A DNA stretch of 64,000 nt from a virus. Taxonomy: Duplodnaviria; Caudoviricetes. The stretch spans positions 1 through 64,000 of IMG/VR virus record IMGVR_UViG_3300021256_000079; one strand, written 5' to 3'. The position numbers and the translations under genes were made by a program. Below, piece after piece: positions 7,630 to 55,682 of this stretch (its first letter is position 1; each line of letters begins with the position of its first letter). The notes below the pieces were generated by a model. It saw only the letters and a list, made by a program, of their open reading frames with translations, did no database searches and was not told the origin of the DNA.

Positions 7630-9132
7630 ATGTCCGGTAGTAATCATATCGTGTACGTTCGTTTTCATAAAAACGGGTTCTTTATGACCAGGGCAGTTCA
7701 TCAATACGATTACGGACAGGTTTTGGATATTAGCGAGTTTCCAAACCTGCCCGCTTCCTTTGAAATGCATTATGCAACAAAGGGAGACACTAAATCTTTG
7801 CTTCAGTTCGGTACAAATGGCGTTGTGCCAATTCCGGATATTCTGCTACAAAAGCCGGCAACAGTTATTGCCTGGCTTTACTTGCATGACGGAGAAACAG
7901 ATGGTGAAACAAGATACGTCATTGAGATTCCAGTTCGTCCGAGGGCAGAGATAGCTGATGTTGAACCAGAACCAGTCGAGCAGAGAGCCATAGACCAGAT
8001 CCTTAACGCTTTGAACGAAGCTATCGATAGATGCGAAGCTGCGGTTGAAAAAGTTGAAAGTATTTCTGCTACAGCAGTGACTCTTTCTCCTGGATCTGAA
8101 GCTACAGCAAAGTATGAAGACGGTCTTTTGACAATTGGCGTTCCTAAAGGTGACGTTGGTCCTCGTGGACCTCAGGGATACCAAGGTGAGCAGGGTCCAC
8201 GTGGTCCTCAGGGTCCTCAAGGCTTAAGAGGACCACAAGGTCTTCAGGGTCCAAGAGGTTATCAAGGTCCTAAGGGTGAGCGCGGTCCTCAGGGTGAGCA
8301 GGGTCCACGTGGTCCTCAAGGATTCCAAGGCGAACAGGGTGAACGTGGTCCTCAAGGTCCTGAGGGTCCTCGTGGGCCTCAGGGTCCAAAAGGTGAACCT
8401 GGAACTAATGCCATTAACGATAATGCTGGCGCTGGATATGTGAGCAATACTTGGTCCGCTAATAAACTGACAAATGAATTTAGCAGAATACCGGTTACTT
8501 CTGGAACGGGAACAGGATCTGCAAAGACTAAGGATTTTGCATATGTCGAAGGTGGTAATACTGTACGTGTTTCTCAGGTTGCGAGCGGACTTGGTTCCTT
8601 TGCAGAAGGATATTCTACAAGTGCAACTGGCAGAGCAGCTCATGCTGAAGGTGAAAGTAATATAGCAAATGGCCAACGTTCTCATGCTGAAGGCATTGGC
8701 ACAAGGGCCGTTGCTAACGATCAGCATGTGCAAGGTAGGTATAACGTTGCAAGCGGTGTTTATGCGGATATTGTTGGTAATGGGACAAGTGTCAGCGATA
8801 GATCCAATGCTTACACTCTTGACTGGGATGGTAATGCTTGGTTTGCTGGTAAAGTAAGTGCTGACAACCCGACTGATGGCAGCGATCTTACCACAAAAGA
8901 ATATGTCGATCGTCTTAAAGATATTTCGCCAGATGTTGTTATGGAAGGCATTGCTATGAAAGCTGTTAGTGCTATTTCAGAAGGATCATACTTTATGATT
9001 AACAATCAGGCATACGTTACCACTACGGATATTTCAAGCGGAGCAACTCTTATTGATGGGACAAATTGCTCTAAGATTGGACTTACTGAGATACTGAACA
9101 TTCTTAAAGACAGCGCTGCAAGACTTGGATAA
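7630..9132 (+). CDS. Collagen-like fibre protein with YadA-head-like repeats
   Basis: About 28 Gly-X-Y triplets (~8150-8400), then S/AHAEG repeats; N-terminal QYDYGQVL resembles baseplate-attachment domains. Confidence 0.8.
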
Positions 9133-27477: not shown

Positions 27478-27652
27478 AAGCATTGAGAGATCTGCGTTTG
27501 CCGGCAAGCTAGGCGCAGATTTTTATTTGTTTCGAGGTGTAAGACCTTTATTGTAAAATAGTCCAAAAGGATGGAGGATCTGGTCGCGTGACGAACCAGG
27601 TCCTCTTTTTTTTCGCGTAATCAACATGCATTATAATGAGGAGGTGGGCTAT

Positions 27653-27943
27653 ATGCTACACATTAAAGGAACTGAGAAAACTATACAGATTTGTGACTGC
27701 GATCTTAAGGAATTTTACGAACTACCAGAAGAATTCAGAGCTAAGATCAATCGTACAATAAAGGAATTGAACGATAAAATCGCTAATGGTGAGAAAGTTA
27801 TGTATCGAACCGTTTTGGATGGACTCGGAATACCGGTTGAAGGTTACGATGACGAGATTCTTGATTTCTGGGGATTTGACAAGAAAGGATTCAGACAATT
27901 GTATAAAAAGAAAGTTACTGTGGAAATCGTGCCAATCGACTAA
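27653..27943 (+). CDS. Hypothetical single-gene cassette between attP and integrase
   Basis: Motif 27614 and GGAGG RBS; followed by hairpin GACTAGT..ACTAGTC and T tract. Confidence 0.7.
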   Translation: MLHIKGTEKTIQICDCDLKEFYELPEEFRAKINRTIKELNDKIANGEKVMYRTVLDGLGIPVEGYDDEILDFWGFDKKGFRQLYKKKVTVEIVPID

Positions 27944-27997
27944 ACGAAACGGAGAGACTAGTCGCACTGCGAACTAGTCCTCTTTTTTTTTGCCAAA

Positions 27998-29002
27998 TCA
28001 CATACAGAGTGCCGCATACATGTCGTCAAAACCGTCTCCATAGAGGTTAATGTAGATATTATAGGTAACTTGTACGCTACTATGCCCCATAAGACGACTC
28101 AGAATCTTAACATCGATACCCTTATAGTAGCAGTTTGTCGCAAAAGTATGCCTAAAAGCATGCTCTCCGTAAAACTTTATTCCGCATTCCTTACAGAGTT
28201 TCTTAGTCTGATAAGAAAGCTTTTGATAAGTATACCTTTCGCCATCCTGCTCAAACACCCATTCTGTCGTTCGACTCTTTAAAAGGATATTTAATATGGC
28301 GATAGCCTTTGGTGTTAGCGGAATAATACGGTTGCTGCTTTTGCTCTTAGGAGAATCCTGATATTCTGCAAAGTTGTACATGGGATTAATAATCGTAGCA
28401 TGTACATGAAGCCGTCTTGTCTGAATTTGGACATCGCTCCATTTAAGAGCCAGAAGCTCTCCTGAACGAATACCAGTTTCGATCATGAAGCCTACAGCAA
28501 GGTAACCGACGCTGTATGGCTGAACGGATATTTTCTTAGTAATCTTCTCTTGCTCTTTATCCGTATATGCTATAATTTCGCGACTCTGCTTTTTAACTCT
28601 GCTTTCGGACGGAAGCTTAACGCCAACAGTCGGATCTGCTTGGATAATTTTCATGGCGGCTGCCTGTTTGAGCGGAGCAGTAACAATTTGAGAAAGTTTC
28701 TTGATGCTACTCATAGCAAATCCATCTTCAAGGAGAGAATTAATGAATCGCTGCACGTCAAAGAAATTAATGTCACCGAGTTTCTTTTCGGAAATCGGAT
28801 ATTTTGACATCGTGTCTCTTGAAGTGCACAGACGTTCATAAGAAGCCTTTTTAACAGAGTTCTTCTTAAATGTCTCAAGCCACATGTTGATAAATTCGAG
28901 TAATGTCATTTGATCGTTCATAAATGACCCTGGTGAACAATCCTCTATCCAGTTTTCAAGGTTCTGCAGTACGTCGTTAGTATAGATATTTGCGTCGTTC
29001 AT
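27998..29002 (-). CDS. int: Tyrosine integrase
   Basis: Core-binding domain, then TGIRSGEL (R), PKSKSS (K), HAFRH, LMGH, YNIY catalytic set; AAAGGAGG RBS on the minus strand. Confidence 0.93.
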   Translation of the reverse strand: MNDANIYTNDVLQNLENWIEDCSPGSFMNDQMTLLEFINMWLETFKKNSVKKASYERLCTSRDTMSKYPISEKKLGDINFFDVQRFINSLLEDGFAMSSIKKLSQIVTAPLKQAAAMKIIQADPTVGVKLPSESRVKKQSREIIAYTDKEQEKITKKISVQPYSVGYLAVGFMIETGIRSGELLALKWSDVQIQTRRLHVHATIINPMYNFAEYQDSPKSKSSNRIIPLTPKAIAILNILLKSRTTEWVFEQDGERYTYQKLSYQTKKLCKECGIKFYGEHAFRHTFATNCYYKGIDVKILSRLMGHSSVQVTYNIYINLYGDGFDDMYAALCM

Positions 29003-29089
29003 GTCAACGACCTCCTTTCGTTAAGAGGAATGCGTTTGGAGCGAGGTCGCGTGATCAACATGCCTTATAATGAAAGGAAGGTGTCTTAT

Positions 29090-29317
29090 ATGACAGAACG
29101 TCAACTTGGATTACTTAAAGATTATGGACCGAGATTCATGGAAAGAAGCGACGATATTCTTACCAATCTCTTACATCTGGCTCCTGACGCAATTAGCGTT
29201 ATGACGGATGAAGAATGGAAAGAATGCGCCGAGGCTTTGACGGATTTTCAGAACAAATTGGAAAAGGTTAGAGTTTTAGTTGCGAAAAGACTTGATGACA
29301 ACGGAATTGAATGGTAA
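29090..29317 (+). CDS. Cassette ORF, hypothetical
   Basis: RBS after motif 29048. Confidence 0.7.
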   Translation: MTERQLGLLKDYGPRFMERSDDILTNLLHLAPDAISVMTDEEWKECAEALTDFQNKLEKVRVLVAKRLDDNGIEW

Positions 29318-29393
29318 AAAGACGGGCCACAAACGTGGCCTTTCTTTTTTCGCGTAAGAAACACTTTTAGTAATGAAAGGAGGTATCCTACAT

Positions 29394-29687
29394 ATGGATA
29401 TTTATGGAAGCAGTATTTCAAAAGGTTACGGGCTTTATAAGGTGCATGGCGTACCTGACAAACCTGAGACGAGAAAGCGCGTGTTTATCGCGGGTTATGA
29501 CGATTATAATGAGGCTGTAGATGCAATGCGCGTAACAGTTGAAAATCGTTATGATGACCTGTTCGAGTACAATCGTAATCTCATCCTCGGTGGGAAGGGT
29601 GTGCGCTTTGAGCACATCGACCCGGAAACCAAGAGGACGGACGAGTACACTGAGTATTATATTAAGGAGATCGGACTTATCATGTAA
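29394..29687 (+). CDS. Cassette ORF, hypothetical
   Basis: AAAGGAGG after motif 29351. Confidence 0.7.
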   Translation: MDIYGSSISKGYGLYKVHGVPDKPETRKRVFIAGYDDYNEAVDAMRVTVENRYDDLFEYNRNLILGGKGVRFEHIDPETKRTDEYTEYYIKEIGLIM

Positions 29688-35407: not shown

Positions 35408-36046
35408 CGCCTAAAACGTATGTACTCGAGGTTTCGGACGAAATCAATAGTGTTCCAAGTAGGATTAAGAGTATACAAAAACTGTTCAACGATGAGAATA
35501 CGATCGTTACTCTTAACCTTATAAGAGAGGTGTTCGGATTGAGGCCGCTTAGATCAGAGTATGAAATGTGCTTTGGTCCGAACACAGAAGAACCGCTGGA
35601 TATTAGTGTATCTTACAGCTTTAATACTAGGATGCATGCTGAAAACAATTGTTATACAATCAAGATTTCGAACGTCATCGATTTAAGATATTTTTATGAA
35701 TGTTGTGAGGAGAGCGATTACTATGGAGACGATTAAAATTAGTGATACAGATCTTAGGGAATATGCCAACGAAATTATGTCGAGCGATGAGTATCTCGCT
35801 CAGAGAGAAAAATACCATATGCACAACCCAAAGCACTATGTAAATGAATCGACGCATAGAGCAATCATGATGAGTTCTATTGATATTGCGAAAAAAACTA
35901 TCGGCAGTAACGGTACTATTGAAGAGATCAAAAGAGCATGTGTCTATATGAGAATCTGTATTGACGCAAGACAGTATCGACTGAACTATACGGCGGCAAA
36001 GAAAGAACTCAAAATTGATGAGCTTGTTCAGAAGTATTGTAAATAA
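35404..36046 (+). other. Two hypothetical ORFs (35404-35736, 35723-36046)
   Basis: Overlapping coupled ORFs. Confidence 0.55.
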
Positions 36047-36128
36047 TACTCGCGTAAGAAACACACGTATAGATGAGAGGACTAAGGAAACTTAGTCCTC
36101 TTTATTTTTATCGAAAGGATGAAAAACT

Positions 36129-36665: not shown

Positions 36666-37325
36666 AAATGTTATGGCAAAGTGTAGATCTGAGGGGCGTA
36701 GGAAGAGAAAAGCAACGTGATGGCATGGAACGGCAGGGAAAAGAATTGCAAAGCGAGGGAATAGCGCTGCACTGAATCGCGTGGGAACAGAGTAGTTACG
36801 AGTAGCAAAGGATTAGCGATGCGACGATTACCAAAGAGATGCATTGGCATAGAACGGCACGGAAACGAATGGCAAAGGACTTGCATAGAAGAGCAAAGGA
36901 GAGGCGTGGCGACAAAATGGAGACGAAATGCAACGGAACAGGACCGCTAAGAAATGAGGAGCGTTGGAAATGAACGGTATGGAGCAGAAAAGAACTGCAT
37001 AGGAATAGAACAGCTACGAATTGAGGAGTGTTGGCATAGCTCAGAGATGCAATGGAAATGAACTGCCAAGAAACGGTACGCAGTGGTAGAGCTTAGATAC
37101 GAGAAGCATTGGCAAAGAACGGATGCTCATCGAGATGCAAAGGAAAAGAATGGCCTTGAATTGAACTGCCAAGAACACAAAAGCAATGGAATTGCAATGA
37201 AACGTCCTGAAAGGGAGAAGAAAAGCAAGGATAGCCGCGAACTGTACGCATTGGCAAAGAATGGAGGCTCATCGAGATGCTAAGGAAAAGCCTTGCATTG
37301 AACTGCCAAGAACAGAAAGGCGACG
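36666..37325 (+). repeat. Non-coding NNNNG pentamer-periodic array; candidate guide RNA locus
   Basis: Parses as ~105 pentamers ending in G plus ~22 G-initiated hexamers; purine-rich; no credible ORF. Confidence 0.85.
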
Positions 37326-37352
37326 GCGATTGCTTGAAAGGAGGTGATCAAA

Positions 37353-37628
37353 ATGATAATTGAAAGCTTTCCTGGCGATGCCAAACCGTACAAGTGTAAT
37401 GACTGTGACACAATCTTTTTATGGAGGGAGGATATTGCAGATCATCCAAAAGGAAGATGTAACAGGTTTAGTACTAAGTACGAATGCTATACAAACGACG
37501 AAACATGCTTATTTTACAGCAAATGTAGTGGACCGATATGCCCAGTATGTAAATCCAAATACGTTGTAAACGTAAACTCTTTTTACTACAGAATAACAAG
37601 ATATTTCAGAAATCGAAAGGAGAAATAA
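37353..37628 (+). CDS. Zinc-ribbon protein between array and RAMP gene
   Basis: AAAGGAGG RBS; CNDC, CPVC; C-terminus similar to 41243-41506. Confidence 0.65.
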   Translation: MIIESFPGDAKPYKCNDCDTIFLWREDIADHPKGRCNRFSTKYECYTNDETCLFYSKCSGPICPVCKSKYVVNVNSFYYRITRYFRNRKEK

Positions 37629-37630
37629 TT

Positions 37631-38242
37631 ATGATCACTTTGACTGTTAAGGTTACTTTTACTGAGGAAGTCCTTGGAACTGCTTCTGCTAACAAAGATA
37701 TTCATGCTGAATACATCGCTAGCAAGGCTCCTGATGCTGCTTCCATTAAGGAAGAAGTGGAAGCCGTTGGCGCTGAAGAAGTGTTTGAAAAGTCTATGAC
37801 CGTTTTTCCGCGAGGAAAAGATGGCGGACCGATTGCCTGGGATTACCAGTGGAAGGGTTTTCTTAAGGACGCCTTTAAGTCCCTTAAGAAGATTCCTGGA
37901 TCTGAATGCGGTAAGATTAAGGCCTATAAACAGGAGATTGATGGCCTTATATTCGTGAACCCGCGTCAGATCCCGATCGTTCTCCCTGAAGGCGGAAAGA
38001 TTGGTATCTGCCAGAGACCTCTCAGAGCCAGCACTGCTCAGGGTGAAAGGATTGCTTTGGCCTCTTCTGAAACAGTTCCTGTCGGATCTACTATGACGTT
38101 TGATATTCAGCTGCTTCTTGACACACACGAAAAAGCTGTAATCGAGGCTTTCAATTACGGAAAGCTTCGTGGTTTTGGTCAGTGGCGAAACTCCGGTGCC
38201 GGACGTTTCAACTATGAAATCCTTAACAGAAAGGTGGATTAA
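37631..38242 (+). CDS. Stand-alone Cas7-like RAMP-fold protein
   Basis: LTVKVTFTEEVLG beta1, PIAWDYQWKGFLKDA helix, ETVPVGSTMTFDI strand, C-terminal G-rich loop GKLRGFGQWRNSGAGRF. Confidence 0.75.
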   Translation: MITLTVKVTFTEEVLGTASANKDIHAEYIASKAPDAASIKEEVEAVGAEEVFEKSMTVFPRGKDGGPIAWDYQWKGFLKDAFKSLKKIPGSECGKIKAYKQEIDGLIFVNPRQIPIVLPEGGKIGICQRPLRASTAQGERIALASSETVPVGSTMTFDIQLLLDTHEKAVIEAFNYGKLRGFGQWRNSGAGRFNYEILNRKVD

Positions 38243-38244
38243 TC

Positions 38245-39039
38245 ATGAATACGATGCTTGCTTTTATGATGGGTGATCGTTTTCGTGGTAATGAATTGAT
38301 GGTTTTTGACTGGAATAAGGCTGCAAAACTTATTAAAGAAAACTATCTGGACGAAGTGGTATTTGCCGGTCTTTCTGGAGATATGGAATATACCTCTGGC
38401 TGTATATTCAGAGATGGTCATCCTGTTCTTGACGATTACACATACCTTTCATCAACTTGGGCAACTCCGGTTCTTGCAGTTGGAGACGAAGAAATTCCAT
38501 GCTATATCATGCAACATGAAACCGAGTGGGATGATAGCACTAAATGGCCACAATCCGCTCTTGATATTCTTGGCGTAAAGAAAACCGAACCCGATCCAAG
38601 AATTTACAACGATAATTCACAAGGTCGTGCAATTCTTGAAGACGATGCTTATAATGGGTATCATTATAGAATTGTATCTACTCGCGGCGATCATCCTTGC
38701 TGCTACATCGAAATTACAGAAGGACATCCTTGGTATCGTAAACCTTATCAGCGTCTTGAGTGGGATTGGGAATGGGACGATGAAGGAAAAGAGATAGAGA
38801 AACCTCCAATTGGAGGCAAAACTATCAACGTTCATGGCGGAATTACTTACAGCGATAACATGGACGTTGAAGGAGAATGGTGGATCGGATGGGATTACGC
38901 TCATGGCGGAGATTATTGTCATCATTATATGAAACATTCGCCTGACGATCATGTATGGACAATGGATGAACTTCGAAAAGAAGTGCATGATGCAATTGAC
39001 CAGCTTAATGATATTTTCAAGGAGGACGACGAAAGGTGA
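38245..39039 (+). CDS. Two-domain hypothetical protein
   Basis: VFDWNKAA...AGLSGD...YLSSTWATP domain fused to an HGGITY...WIGWDYAHGGD domain. Confidence 0.7.
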   Translation: MNTMLAFMMGDRFRGNELMVFDWNKAAKLIKENYLDEVVFAGLSGDMEYTSGCIFRDGHPVLDDYTYLSSTWATPVLAVGDEEIPCYIMQHETEWDDSTKWPQSALDILGVKKTEPDPRIYNDNSQGRAILEDDAYNGYHYRIVSTRGDHPCCYIEITEGHPWYRKPYQRLEWDWEWDDEGKEIEKPPIGGKTINVHGGITYSDNMDVEGEWWIGWDYAHGGDYCHHYMKHSPDDHVWTMDELRKEVHDAIDQLNDIFKEDDER

Positions 39040-39305: not shown

Positions 39306-39365
39306 TTCAAAAGAGGCTGTCTCAATCGAGGCAGCCTTTTTATTTTTTCTGGAAGGAGAAATTAA

Positions 39366-50638: not shown

Positions 50639-50640
50639 TA

Positions 50641-50723
50641 GAGTTCTGGAAGAGTTCTGGAAGAGTACTTGAATGGTTCTGGAAGAGTTCTGGAAGAGTT
50701 CTGGAAGAGTTCTGGAAGAGTAC
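50641..50723. repeat. 11-bp tandem repeat (GAGTTCTGGAA) x7
   Basis: Five perfect and two variant units plus a partial unit. Confidence 0.9.
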
Positions 50724-51266: not shown

Positions 51267-54200
51267 ATGCAGTGTGACTTTTTTAGAGTAACAACAGCAT
51301 ATGTTAAGAATGGAGTTGAGTCAGTTATTCCTGAATTCCTTGTTAAAACTAAGATCAACGATCTTATGATTCGAGGTGGAAAATTCTATGCCATTCTTAA
51401 TAAAAGAACAAACATGTGGGAAACGAATGAAGGAGTTGTTCAAAAGTTTGTTGATGAAGAGATTGAAGCTCTTTATCAGAAACTAACAGCTAATCCCGGT
51501 CAAAAGTTTTATATTCGTAAAGACATGGAGAGTTTCGGAAGTGGAAGTTGGAGTACTTATAAGAATTATGCTGCCAGTCTTCCTGACAATTGGCATCAGC
51601 TCGATAATAAGATCTGTTTTAGCGACACTCAGGTCACTCCTAAAGATTATATTTCTAAGAGACTTCCTTATGCTCTCGGTGATAGCGGATACGAAAGTTG
51701 GGATGAACTTGTTGGTACTTTATATTCTCCAGAAGAAAGAGAAAAGATAGAATGGGCCATTGGATCCATTGTCTCTGGAGATAGTAAAGATATTCAAAAA
51801 TTTATAGTTCTCTATGGTGATCCTGGTGCCGGTAAAGGAACGATTATTGAAATTATTAAAAAGTTGTTTCCTGGATATTATGAGGTGTTCGATGCAAAGA
51901 GTCTTAGCAGCAATAGCAATGCATTCGCATTCGAGCAATTTCGTACGAACCCTTTGATCGCCTTGCAGAGTGATGGCGATTTAAGTCGAATCGAGGACAA
52001 CACAAAAATTAATAGTCTGGTTAGCCATGAAACTATAGTGATGAATGAAAAAAGGAAGCAGAGTTATAATTTCACACCTAGATGTTTTCTATTCATGGCC
52101 TCAAATAAACCTGTAAAGATTACTGATGCCAAAAGTGGAATCATTCGAAGACTTATTGATGTTCATCCTACTGGCAACACACTTCCTAAAGCTAAGTATG
52201 ATAGCTTAATGGGTAAAGTCCAATTTGAACTTGGTGGAATTGCAAAACACTGCCTTGATGTTTATCAAAAGCTTGGAAAAAACTATTACAACGGCTATCG
52301 GCCATTAAGTATGATGTTCCAGACAGATGCGTTCTTTAACTTCATGAAAGATCGTTATGACTTTTTTAAGATTGAACATGCTGACGGAATTTGTTTGTCT
52401 GAAGCTTACATCGAATGGCAAAATTATTGCAACGAAACTGGCCTTGATATTCGTCTTCCTAGATACAAATTTAGAGAAGAATTGAAAAACTATTTTGAGC
52501 ACTTTGATGATCGCGTGTCAGTGAACAATGAAGATCATAGAAGTTGGTTTAGCGGTTTTAAGGTCGATCGGTTTCTCGGAAGTAGAGGTGGACGAAAAGA
52601 TATTCCTGTAAAGGGTAAAACTCTTGGTCTAGTCCTCGATCAAAAGGTTTCACTTCTCGATGAGATGTTGAAAGACTGTCAAGCACAGTATGGAGAAGAA
52701 AAACCTGAGGGCGGAAGTAAGCCAAGAATCTCTTGGGATGAATGTCAGACAACTCTTAAGAATATTGATACTTCTAAACTTCACTTTGTTCGTCTTCCTA
52801 AAGATCATATTGTTATTGACTTTGATCTTAAGAATGAAAAAGGTGAAAAAGACGCTTTACTTAATCTCGAAGCTGCCGATAAGTGGCCAAAAACCTATGC
52901 TGAATACAGCCAAGGTGGAAAAGGCGTGCACTTGCATTATATTTATGCTGGTGATCCTGAAGAACTCAAGGCTCTTTATGCAGATGGCATTGAGATTAAA
53001 ATCTCAAAAGGTAAAAGTAGTCTTAGAAGAAGGCTCAGTCTGTGTAATAACATCCCAGTTGCAACTATTAGTTCTGGTCTTCCTAAGAAAGAGGTGGTTG
53101 ACAATTTGCTTGACTTCGAAGCTGTTAAGGACGAACAGCATTTGAGAAACATTGTCAGTAAATGTCTTCGAAAAGATATTCAGCAGCCTTACACAACAAC
53201 GGCTATGAATCTTATTAAGAAGACTCTTGAAGACGCATATAACAGCGGTCTCAAGTATGATATTACTGACATGCGTCCTGCCATTAAAGGTTTCGCTTGT
53301 AAGAGCACTCATCAGAAAGAAACCTGTATGAAAATTGCCGAAGAATTGCATTATAAAGGAAAAGTCTTTGAAACCCTCATGGAAGGCTCTATAATGGCCT
53401 CTAAGCCGCCTGAAGAGGTAGAGACGACTAAATCTACGCCCCCTGAGAAAAATCGCTCAGAGGGCCTTTTAAATGCAAAAGAAGTGCATCCTGACATCAT
53501 TTATATTCCAAATGAACCTTCTAGCGAAGAACTTCCTGTATTCTTTGATATTGAAGTCTTTCCTAACCTGCTTCTTGTGAACTGGAAAGAGGCTGGCGAA
53601 GGTAAAGGCGTTGTGAGAATGATAAATCCCACAATGCAGGAAGTTAGAGCTTTGTTTAAGAAGAAGCTTATAGGCTTTAACTGTAGAAGGTATGACAACC
53701 ATGTACTTTATGCAAGAGCCATTGGCTATGATATTCCGTCTCTCTATAAGCTTAGTCAGAAAATCATCGCTGGAAGTAAGAATGCCATGATGGGTCAGGC
53801 CTATGATATTTCCTATACCGATGTCTATGACTTTGCAGCTAAGAAGCAAAGTCTTAAGAAGTGGGAAATTGAACTAGGCATTCACCATCAGGAACTTGGA
53901 CTTCCTTGGGATCAGCCAGTTCCAGAAGAAAGATGGCCAGAAGTTGCTGCATATTGCGACAATGACGTTATTGCAACTGAAGCTGTATTCAATCATTTGG
54001 CTGGTGACTTTAAAGCAAGAGAGATTCTGGCAGACATTGCTGGCATGACAGTCAATGACACAACCAATAGCCTTACAACCAAAATTATATTTGGCGATGA
54101 TCCCGCTCCTCAAAGACAGTTTGTCTATCCTGATCTTAAGAAAAAATTCCCAGGTTATATATTTGAGAATGGAAAGAGCTATCTTAATGGAGTTGAGATT

Positions 54201-55682
54201 GGCGAAGGTGGAAGAGTATATGCCGTTCCTGGAATTCATCATCATGTAACAACTTATGACGTTGCCAGTATGCATCCTTCTTCTATTATTGCCGAAAATG
54301 GCTTTGGCAAGTATACAGAACGCTTCAAACAGCTACTTGATATTCGTATTGCTATTAAGCATAAGGACTTCGAGAAAGCCAAAACAATGCTGGATGGTAA
54401 ACTTGCCAAATACTTAACCGATAAGAATCAAGCAAAGGCTCTTAGCCAGGCACTTAAGATTGCTATCAATAGTGTTTATGGTTTAACTGCTGCTGGATTC
54501 GATAACAAATTTAGAGATCCTCGCAATGTGGATAATTGGGTTGCTAAGAGAGGCGCTCTCTTTATTGAGACACTTAGGGTTAATGTAATTAAGCTTGGAG
54601 GCAAAGTTGTTCACATTAAGACAGACTCTATCAAGGTTGAAGATCCAACTCCTGAGATCACGAATTATATTCTGGACTTCGGTAAACAGTGGGGTTACAC
54701 ATTTGAAGTTGAGGACATCTACGAAAAGATGTGTCTCGTGAATGATGCTGTTTATGTTGCTCTTAGAGATAGGGAAGATCCGAGTTGGAAAGATGAATGC
54801 GAAAAGGCCAAAAAGAAAGCCGAAGAAACTAATTCAGTTTATCAAGAACCTACAAGGTGGACAGCCACTGGTGCTCAGTTCCAACATCCTTATGTCTTTA
54901 AGCATCTCTTTAGCGGTGAGGAAGTCACTTTCAGAGATCTGTGTGAAACCAAGACCGTTACAAGCGCTTTATATTTGGACATGAACGAAAATCTTAGTGA
55001 TGTAACAGAGTATGAGAAGAATCTAGACAAACTTGTAAAGAGAGCAAAGACACTTCTTAAAACCGAAGGATATTTTGGTTCATGGGAAGAATGGCCTGAG
55101 TGGAGAAAACAGAATCCTGATGCTCAAGATTCGCATGGCGGGGTTATTTATGGTGAACTTGACGATCTTGTTAAAGATCAAGAAGTTCTCAAAGAGCTTA
55201 TTGCAAAAGGACACAATTATATTTTCGTTGGTAAAGCTGGATGCTTCTGTCCTGTACTTAAAGGAACAGGTGGTGGCATCCTTGTAAGAGAAAAAGATGG
55301 TAAATTCAATGCTGCAACTGGTAGTAAAGGATTCAGATGGCGTGAAAGTGAAAGTATTTCTGGTGCTGACAGAATGAACATAATCGACATGGGCTACTTT
55401 GAGAATCTTGCTCGGGTTGCAAAAGAGGCTATTGAGACATATGGGGACTTTGATGCATTCGTAACAGAATCATCTGAAGTCCCCAATTATATTTCAATAG
55501 ACGAAGAAGCAGAGAAAGCCGCTAAGAAGTATGGAGAACCCGGTGTTCCTTCATGGCTGCCACCTTGTGGTGATGGCAAGTATGCTAATTGCTATGATTG
55601 TCCTCACTTTGATATTGAGAAAATTCCCCCTGAATGTAGAAAAGGTTATGACCTGACAGAACACTTCACAATTAATGTTTGA
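51267..55682 (+). CDS. Fused SF3 helicase - AEP primase - family B DNA polymerase
   Basis: GDPGAGKGT Walker A, FMASN; IVIDFDLK...SQGGKGVHLHY primase motifs; FDIEV, GFNCRRYD, YCDNDV exonuclease; DVASMHPS, KIAINSVYG, IKTDS polymerase motifs. Confidence 0.88.
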   Translation: MQCDFFRVTTAYVKNGVESVIPEFLVKTKINDLMIRGGKFYAILNKRTNMWETNEGVVQKFVDEEIEALYQKLTANPGQKFYIRKDMESFGSGSWSTYKNYAASLPDNWHQLDNKICFSDTQVTPKDYISKRLPYALGDSGYESWDELVGTLYSPEEREKIEWAIGSIVSGDSKDIQKFIVLYGDPGAGKGTIIEIIKKLFPGYYEVFDAKSLSSNSNAFAFEQFRTNPLIALQSDGDLSRIEDNTKINSLVSHETIVMNEKRKQSYNFTPRCFLFMASNKPVKITDAKSGIIRRLIDVHPTGNTLPKAKYDSLMGKVQFELGGIAKHCLDVYQKLGKNYYNGYRPLSMMFQTDAFFNFMKDRYDFFKIEHADGICLSEAYIEWQNYCNETGLDIRLPRYKFREELKNYFEHFDDRVSVNNEDHRSWFSGFKVDRFLGSRGGRKDIPVKGKTLGLVLDQKVSLLDEMLKDCQAQYGEEKPEGGSKPRISWDECQTTLKNIDTSKLHFVRLPKDHIVIDFDLKNEKGEKDALLNLEAADKWPKTYAEYSQGGKGVHLHYIYAGDPEELKALYADGIEIKISKGKSSLRRRLSLCNNIPVATISSGLPKKEVVDNLLDFEAVKDEQHLRNIVSKCLRKDIQQPYTTTAMNLIKKTLEDAYNSGLKYDITDMRPAIKGFACKSTHQKETCMKIAEELHYKGKVFETLMEGSIMASKPPEEVETTKSTPPEKNRSEGLLNAKEVHPDIIYIPNEPSSEELPVFFDIEVFPNLLLVNWKEAGEGKGVVRMINPTMQEVRALFKKKLIGFNCRRYDNHVLYARAIGYDIPSLYKLSQKIIAGSKNAMMGQAYDISYTDVYDFAAKKQSLKKWEIELGIHHQELGLPWDQPVPEERWPEVAAYCDNDVIATEAVFNHLAGDFKAREILADIAGMTVNDTTNSLTTKIIFGDDPAPQRQFVYPDLKKKFPGYIFENGKSYLNGVEIGEGGRVYAVPGIHHHVTTYDVASMHPSSIIAENGFGKYTERFKQLLDIRIAIKHKDFEKAKTMLDGKLAKYLTDKNQAKALSQALKIAINSVYGLTAAGFDNKFRDPRNVDNWVAKRGALFIETLRVNVIKLGGKVVHIKTDSIKVEDPTPEITNYILDFGKQWGYTFEVEDIYEKMCLVNDAVYVALRDREDPSWKDECEKAKKKAEETNSVYQEPTRWTATGAQFQHPYVFKHLFSGEEVTFRDLCETKTVTSALYLDMNENLSDVTEYEKNLDKLVKRAKTLLKTEGYFGSWEEWPEWRKQNPDAQDSHGGVIYGELDDLVKDQEVLKELIAKGHNYIFVGKAGCFCPVLKGTGGGILVREKDGKFNAATGSKGFRWRESESISGADRMNIIDMGYFENLARVAKEAIETYGDFDAFVTESSEVPNYISIDEEAEKAAKKYGEPGVPSWLPPCGDGKYANCYDCPHFDIEKIPPECRKGYDLTEHFTINV

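Follow-up and report, generated by a model that had tools for sequence, protein, structure and literature searches.

The tract of degenerate five-base units described here is very probably the vrRNA array of a phage-encoded staggered VIPR system with non-canonical NNNNG repeats. The window analysed comprises 64,000 nt (positions 1 to 64,000 of IMG/VR record IMGVR_UViG_3300021256_000079) of a 94.7-kb phage genome, in which this array is the sole tract of its type. VIPR, described for the first time in 2026, is related to CRISPR and consists, according to the available preprint text, of a lone RAMP protein, Vipr, together with vrRNAs made up of GGY/NN pentamers (bioRxiv 10.64898/2026.04.26.720920). 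Seven VIPR types are recognized there; in type II, one Vipr protomer is associated with each pentamer, such that the fixed bases are locked and the two variable bases are presented, and these NN dinucleotides pair with dsDNA with every third target base being skipped, leading to transcriptional silencing of competing mobile elements (bioRxiv 10.64898/2026.04.26.720920). The attribution of the present locus to this system follows from the predicted Vipr homologue encoded downstream of the array. The array repeats depart from the canonical GGY/NN motif in that one G only is fixed. The methods of the preprint admit the alternative repeats NNNGG, YNNNG and NNNNG (bioRxiv 10.64898/2026.04.26.720920), and a repeat other than GGY is hence compatible with membership. 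The same text also covers staggered arrays, where each vrRNA is shifted by 1 nt against the one before it and the vrRNA boundaries are drawn at the offsets (bioRxiv 10.64898/2026.04.26.720920). As the staggered layout has already been mentioned by the VIPR authors, the locus is a new example and not a new kind of system. What is new relative to the available preprint text are the block-size statistics, the consensus across the junction (G-C-A-N-N-G before it and G-M-A after it), the whole-block indels and the position-specific substitution rates.

Table 1. Features of the probable VIPR locus and its surroundings (positions in the window)
Feature	Position	Strand	Description
Probable vrRNA array	36666..37341	+	~130 pentamer repeats G-(A/C)-(A/G)-N-N, in ~24 blocks of 5n+1 nt
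Internal duplication, copy 1	37106..37181	+	spans a G-C-A-T-T-G junction and a 31-nt block, and runs into the 46-nt block
Internal duplication, copy 2	37248..37321	+	3 differences in the first 43 positions; without one pentamer (AATGG) relative to copy 1
vipr gene (predicted)	37631..38242	+	lone protein of 203 aa with a RAMP/Cas7 fold; G-loop GFGQWRNSGAGRF
Cys-rich small ORF	37353..37628	+	91 aa from ATG, between array and vipr; strong AGGAGG ribosome-binding site
264-aa gene	38245..39039	+	starts 3 nt past the vipr stop; matches phrog_2164, a family of unknown function, in its C-terminal half
Intrinsic-terminator-like hairpin	36075..36102	+	closes the preceding transcription unit
Intrinsic-terminator-like hairpin	39310..39341	+	nearest strong one past the array, vipr and the genes after it

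The array sits between two plus-strand genes and is non-coding, with the longest ORF not exceeding 71 aa. It is purine-rich (A 255, G 210, C 106, T 104), and its Fourier power spectrum is characterized by a peak at 5.19 nt with 23 times the mean power, alongside autocorrelation maxima at lags of 5, 10/11, 15/16, 21 and 26. For its description we use the unit notation G-p1-p2-p3-p4, with a block being (GNNNN)n+G. Viterbi segmentation yields 109 pentamers, 23 hexamers and 1 tetramer, and 93% of the segmented units carry the anchor G. The base after the anchor G is A or C in 89% of the units, in agreement with the preliminary description, which had reported mostly A or C at this point; the second base after the G is A in 60% and G in 23% (83% A or G), and the last two bases are variable. 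The register slips by one base 23 times (about 22 slips had been counted before), nearly always through an extra G that follows a G-C-A-N-N unit. The slips divide the array into about 24 blocks, almost all of which are 16, 21, 26, 31, 36, 41 or 46 nt long (5n+1), thereby reproducing the range of 16-46 nt given previously. Each block closes in a G, which abuts the opening G of the next block and gives rise to the +1 register slip. The motif GCNNNGG, which had been proposed as the signature of these junctions, is found 18 times in the array as against 3.1 ± 1.6 times in shuffles.

Two forms of internal repetition had also been noted, and both are recovered. The sequence TGAACTGCCAAGAA is present at 37059, 37162 and 37299, matching the three occurrences claimed, and the 43-nt duplication with 3 differences is confirmed (3/43 positions differ between 37106-37148 and 37248-37290); with a 5-nt indel permitted, the duplication reaches about 75 nt (Table 1). 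The array RNA is predicted to fold no better than shuffled sequences (z=0.14) and appears to be unstructured. Tandem Repeats Finder does not detect the array because its units are degenerate; an Rfam search with the array at E values up to 10 matched no family, and blastn in distant mode against the INPHARED phages found nothing. The only part of the array with a broken grammar is 37215-37253, where a tetramer step occurs along with units lacking the G. Within it, four of the six close relatives have one additional base at 37231; relative to this extra base, a 1-nt deletion in the studied phage seems, from the aligned sequences, to corrupt one or two guides.

The vipr gene begins 290 nt downstream of the array, and its product has no match in Pfam, PHROG or PADLOC. 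Its AlphaFold2 model (pLDDT 88) finds type VII Cas7 and type III Csm3 as the best Foldseek matches (probability 1.0, TM ~0.6), and the profile of its family matches type VII Cas7 in the PDB (E=2e-5) on the glycine-rich loop. The alignment of the family profile against the Vipr protein of Escherichia phage SUSP1 with hhalign runs end to end over 175 aligned columns (E=1.6e-5, probability 79%), and the G-loops of the two proteins superpose (GVGDWRP-RFGRF in SUSP1 and GFGQWRNSGAGRF in the studied phage). In SUSP1 Vipr, H17 and D177 recognize the first G of the repeat, R138 and W178 recognize the second, and R179 contributes to the pyrimidine pocket (bioRxiv 10.64898/2026.04.26.720920). In the residue alignment of the two proteins, which has 23% identity, the Trp and Arg are kept as W185 and R186, whereas H17 corresponds to T17 and D177 to the nearly invariant Q184. 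Taken together, the profile and model comparisons identify the predicted product of this gene as a Vipr homologue, Vipr being a lone RAMP protein defined by an RRM core, a glycine-rich loop and a thumb. Its family comprises 5,728 proteins at E ≤ 0.001 in a collection clustered at 90% identity, with 1,669 matches among the representatives of the 50%-identity clusters, and is without a Pfam model.

A protein search with Vipr retrieved 23 related viral loci from IMG/VR, with Vipr identities of 40-86%, and in all 23 of these vipr is adjoined by a tract whose units recur every ~5.1-5.2 nt (5.12-5.21). Those arrays that are detected with the motif model derived from the window are all on the strand of the gene, with none on the opposite strand, and may be placed either upstream or downstream of vipr depending on the locus. 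Besides vipr, no neighbouring gene is conserved across all the related loci. The slips recur in the related phages: segmentation of all distinct arrays collected gives 459 internal blocks with a mean of 5.74 ± 1.71 repeats, and 90% of these contain 4-8 repeats, compared to 35% under a geometric model (random placement would give an SD of 5.2). Family-wide, the extra base at the slips is G in 84%, and the junction consensus reads G-C(80%)-A(69%)-N-N-G before and G-M-A(74%) after the boundary; accordingly, blocks end in a last repeat of the form G-C(80%)-A(69%)-N-N and begin with a first repeat of the form G-M-A(74%)-N-N. In two relatives (IMG/VR 3300035130_000336 and 3300029827_000121), vipr is surrounded by at least 4 distinct arrays with a combined length of more than 2.5 kb. 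These arrays have Y-N-N-N-G repeats, with C or T following the G and A accounting for only 3-7%, indicating that the base after G differs between sub-clades.

With staggered VIPR, as presented in the available preprint text, the locus has in common a lone Vipr, an adjacent co-oriented pentamer RNA, a phage or prophage host, a 1-nt guide offset with no spacer, tail or ribozyme in between, and one fixed G per repeat. Likenesses to the type II system of SUSP1 include the homologous Vipr protein of comparable length (195 versus 203 aa), the retention of the Trp and Arg of the G-loop, and the 5-nt repeats. However, the SUSP1 vrRNAs are ~100 nt long and carry a structured 3' tail behind their 9-16 GGY/NN repeats, whereas the studied array has no tail, putative guides of 3-9 repeats and one fixed G; furthermore, the base after the G is A or C in the studied array and a pyrimidine in SUSP1. 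In the SUSP1 genome (KT454805), vipr is located at 28474-29061 on the minus strand (195 aa), and GGYNN arrays are found in both flanking intergenic gaps (27499-28031 and 29061-29511). Both vipr and the following 146-aa gene are labelled 'hypothetical protein' in the GenBank entry, and the arrays are unannotated. A further preprint reports, in its available text, non-canonical VIPR motifs obtained through entropy periodicity, namely GAC/NN, CAC/NN, WGT/NN and TGH/NN (bioRxiv 10.64898/2026.10.21.760802). These resemble the present array in having a 5-nt period beside a Vipr-like fold and a fixed part that is not GGY, but G-(A/C)-(A/G)-N-N is absent from the motifs named in that text, and the arrays there have ~10 repeats rather than being long and punctuated.

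The Cas7 backbones of class 1 CRISPR systems (Csm3 and type VII Cas7) are the best structural matches of Vipr, and their RAMP filaments similarly measure the guide in fixed steps. Yet class 1 systems use 6-nt steps (5+1), repeat-spacer arrays, Cas6/Cas5 handles and Cas1-Cas2 acquisition, while the studied locus shows 5-nt steps and neither repeats nor spacers. No cas families were found among the 10 proteins neighbouring vipr, and searches of the 94.7-kb genome revealed neither a Cas1 gene nor CRISPR-like repeats. Membership in class 1 CRISPR-Cas was rejected on account of the 5-nt step, the lack of repeats and spacers, and the lack of Cas1.

To follow how the arrays change, we used loci whose Vipr is 95-99% identical to that of the studied phage, and scored indels against six of them. 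Whole-block events account for 11 indels of 21, 26 or 31 nt and for two larger sizes, 62 and 98 nt, the last representing three consecutive blocks that are absent from two relatives; the other class consists of single repeats of 5 or 10 nt and a few small indels. When blocks are clustered into families, the arrays of the near relatives become collinear strings in which blocks are present or absent and a few have moved. Blocks, in other words, behave as evolutionary cassettes. An alignment of related arrays had been suggested as a means of detecting gain and loss in multiples of 5 nt; such indels do exist but form a minority, the dominant class being 5n+1, i.e. the whole block. Block families also resemble each other, with 30/49 showing at least 13/16 matches in a four-repeat window as opposed to 3.8/49 in column-shuffled controls. 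This resemblance fits duplication followed by divergence, judging by the sequences, and could also arise if several guides addressed variant forms of a single target site. The earlier proposal that the array diversifies by in-register duplication rather than spacer acquisition thus stands in part: the one internal duplication, the likeness among block families and the lack of Cas1 are in its favour, but indels in multiples of 5 nt are not dominant.

Substitution rates in the aligned blocks differ markedly by position, with 1.0% at the anchor G and 0.7% at the terminal G, as against 8.7% at p1, 6.2% at p2, 7.2% at p3 and 16.2% at p4. Counting each variant once gives 2 for G, 20 for p1, 15 for p2, 10 for p3 and 44 for p4. 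The base just before the next G (p4) is accordingly the fastest-evolving position of the array. The preliminary reading of GCNNNGG as a boundary between individual guides receives indirect support from the adjoining Vipr homologue, the staggered arrays of the preprint, the whole-block indels, the collinear block families and the low substitution rate of the junction G.

On the strength of these observations the following mechanism might be proposed. The array would be transcribed along with the flanking plus-strand genes as an unstructured RNA, in a unit delimited by the two terminator-like hairpins (Table 1). Vipr filaments would extend along pentamers that are in register and would be halted by the extra G, which would place a G in a pocket expecting A or C and move each later anchor by one base. 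At each slip, one short filament would then stop and another begin, giving ~24 guides of 3-9 repeats, mostly 4-7. Given that W185 and R186 are kept, the conserved G of the array may be the equivalent of the second G (G2) of the SUSP1 repeat, with the contacts to the first G (G1) having been replaced through the changes of H17 to T17 and of D177 to Q184. In such an arrangement p1 would correspond to the pyrimidine slot, relaxed to A or C, and p4 to the lost G1 slot, which would explain why only one G is fixed and why p4 evolves fastest. The guide dinucleotide would be p2-p3, the second and third bases after the G, and this is the least certain step. The slot assignment from p1 to p4 is a hypothesis that draws on the alignment at 23% identity and on the rates from six relatives. 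The mean array period lies near 31/6, and one turn of the SUSP1 filament contains six protomers (bioRxiv 10.64898/2026.04.26.720920); this correspondence may be a coincidence.

Target searches covered a range of possible codes, with the dinucleotide at positions 3-4, 2-3 or 1-2 after the G, as well as tri- and tetranucleotides, each with skips of 0-3. In the phage genome and all fetched loci, there was no excess of targets over column-shuffled guides; an apparent excess at a 3-nt spacing (z ~3) vanished once the best hits per block were compared. Searches of IMG/VR with exact gapped patterns from the longest block (9 repeats) gave 6 matches for positions 3-4 and 11 for positions 2-3, with no common gene or frame, and 5 of these 11 belong to one lineage and are out of frame. 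A metagenome scan with the same block yielded 67 scattered matches (marine, compost and other samples) that share no gene. The matches in IMG/VR and in the metagenomes are at chance level. Under the published rule, a block of 3-5 repeats would determine just 6-10 bases of its target, a small number for recognition to be specific.

This shortness of single blocks is one of the points that might favour a different reading of the slips, in which VIPR is retained for the tract and the extra Gs do not delimit guides. Filaments and guides would then span multiple blocks, and the sixth base would be a tolerated bulge that keeps the RNA in phase with the helical filament, at ~31 nt per six protomers. 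The ratio 31/6 is equal to 5.17, which compares well with the constancy of the mean period (5.12-5.21 nt) across loci with Vipr just 40-86% identical, and with the six protomers per turn of the SUSP1 filament. We nevertheless regard this possibility as improbable, because block length ranges from 3 to 9 repeats instead of being fixed at 6, the closing repeat of a block follows a G-C-A consensus of its own, and the gain or loss of single blocks seen in close relatives would break multi-block guides; moreover, the available preprint text puts the vrRNA boundaries at such offsets.

Explanations outside VIPR fare worse. The GGA and AAGGA motifs at many junctions are reminiscent of a sponge RNA for a host protein, such as a GGA binder of the CsrA type or a ring of the TRAP type that recognizes triplets every 5-6 nt, and the period, being half of 10.4 bp, might be taken to point to a DNA-level element whose phasing is half a helical turn (5.2 bp). 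Either is very unlikely in view of the strict co-oriented linkage to the Vipr homologue and to nothing else, the strand asymmetry that always follows the strand of the gene, the lack of hairpins presenting GGA (z=0.14) and the lack of a matching Rfam family. A CsrB/RsmZ-type sponge RNA was rejected based on the folding result and the Rfam search at E up to 10, and TRAP- or CsrA-type RNAs and the half-turn DNA element were dropped in view of the adjoining Vipr homologue and the specificity of the linkage. It is also extremely unlikely that the tract is a neutral product of replication slippage, that is, a decaying microsatellite-like sequence devoid of function. The internal duplication with its 5-nt indel and the degeneracy that lets the units escape Tandem Repeats Finder would be expected of such a sequence, but the anchor Gs are ~10 times more conserved than the other positions, the grammar is kept across loci with Vipr only 40-86% identical, and the distribution of block sizes is far from random.

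Returning to the reading of the tract as a staggered vrRNA array, it is conceivable, though rather doubtful, that this very large clade of rumen and gut phages differs from type II in guide delimitation, reading positions and array evolution jointly. In terms of delimitation, the guides would be about one filament turn long (4-8 repeats) on a continuous transcript, with the +1 G alone ending and seeding filaments and no tail, ribozyme or dedicated nuclease being involved. As for the reading positions, the pocket for the first G would have been lost through the changes of D177 to Q184 and H17 to T17, resulting in a repeat of the form x-G-M-N-N. Array evolution would proceed by the exchange and duplication of whole guide cassettes, amounting to a CRISPR-like modularity without repeats or an acquisition machine. 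VIPR is only months old, with type II alone having been dissected, and staggered single-G arrays are not among the layouts that the available preprint text gives as confirmed by small-RNA sequencing (bioRxiv 10.64898/2026.04.26.720920). Guide length, the junction consensus, cassette turnover and the free position furnish testable predictions regarding short-guide delimitation and the bases that carry the code. With respect to annotation, the VIPR label is appropriate for tracts of this kind in Clostridia phages and for the 200-aa proteins beside them.

Among the other genes of the locus, the Cys-rich ORF that precedes vipr lacks conservation in the wider family. The 264-aa gene that follows vipr occupies the position expected of a vap accessory gene, and is a positional candidate for this role. 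The slot that it fills, directly downstream of vipr, is hypervariable among the studied phage and seven loci at 95-99% Vipr identity, with products of 82, 91, 116, 122, 261/264 or 77+223 aa, and beyond it a 94-aa gene and then a DUF7678 gene remain in place. The slot could be one for swappable accessory (vap-like) genes or for anti-defence genes. About 600 nt upstream of the array, a 116-aa ORF (35696-36046) shows a weak partial match to phrog_4291 (E=9e-4), the same family to which a 932-aa single-subunit RNA polymerase encoded at 58763-61561 belongs, and which is annotated there as 'RNA-dependent RNA polymerase'.

The IMG/VR record from which the window comes is rated 100% complete, and the genome encodes a tail fibre, an integrase, a DNA polymerase-primase and a phage RNA polymerase. 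Relatives were found as prophages in MAGs of rumen Clostridia by a search with a single protein, and the source is a temperate phage of rumen Clostridia. Elsewhere in the genome, an 11-nt tandem repeat, AGAGTTCTGGA, is present at 50640-50721 in 7.5 copies with 88% matches, ~550 nt upstream of the gene for the 1471-aa primase-polymerase (51267-55682), and is a candidate origin of replication or set of iterons. The 500-aa tail-fibre gene (7630-9132) contains collagen-like Gly-X-Y repeats at 8158-8402.
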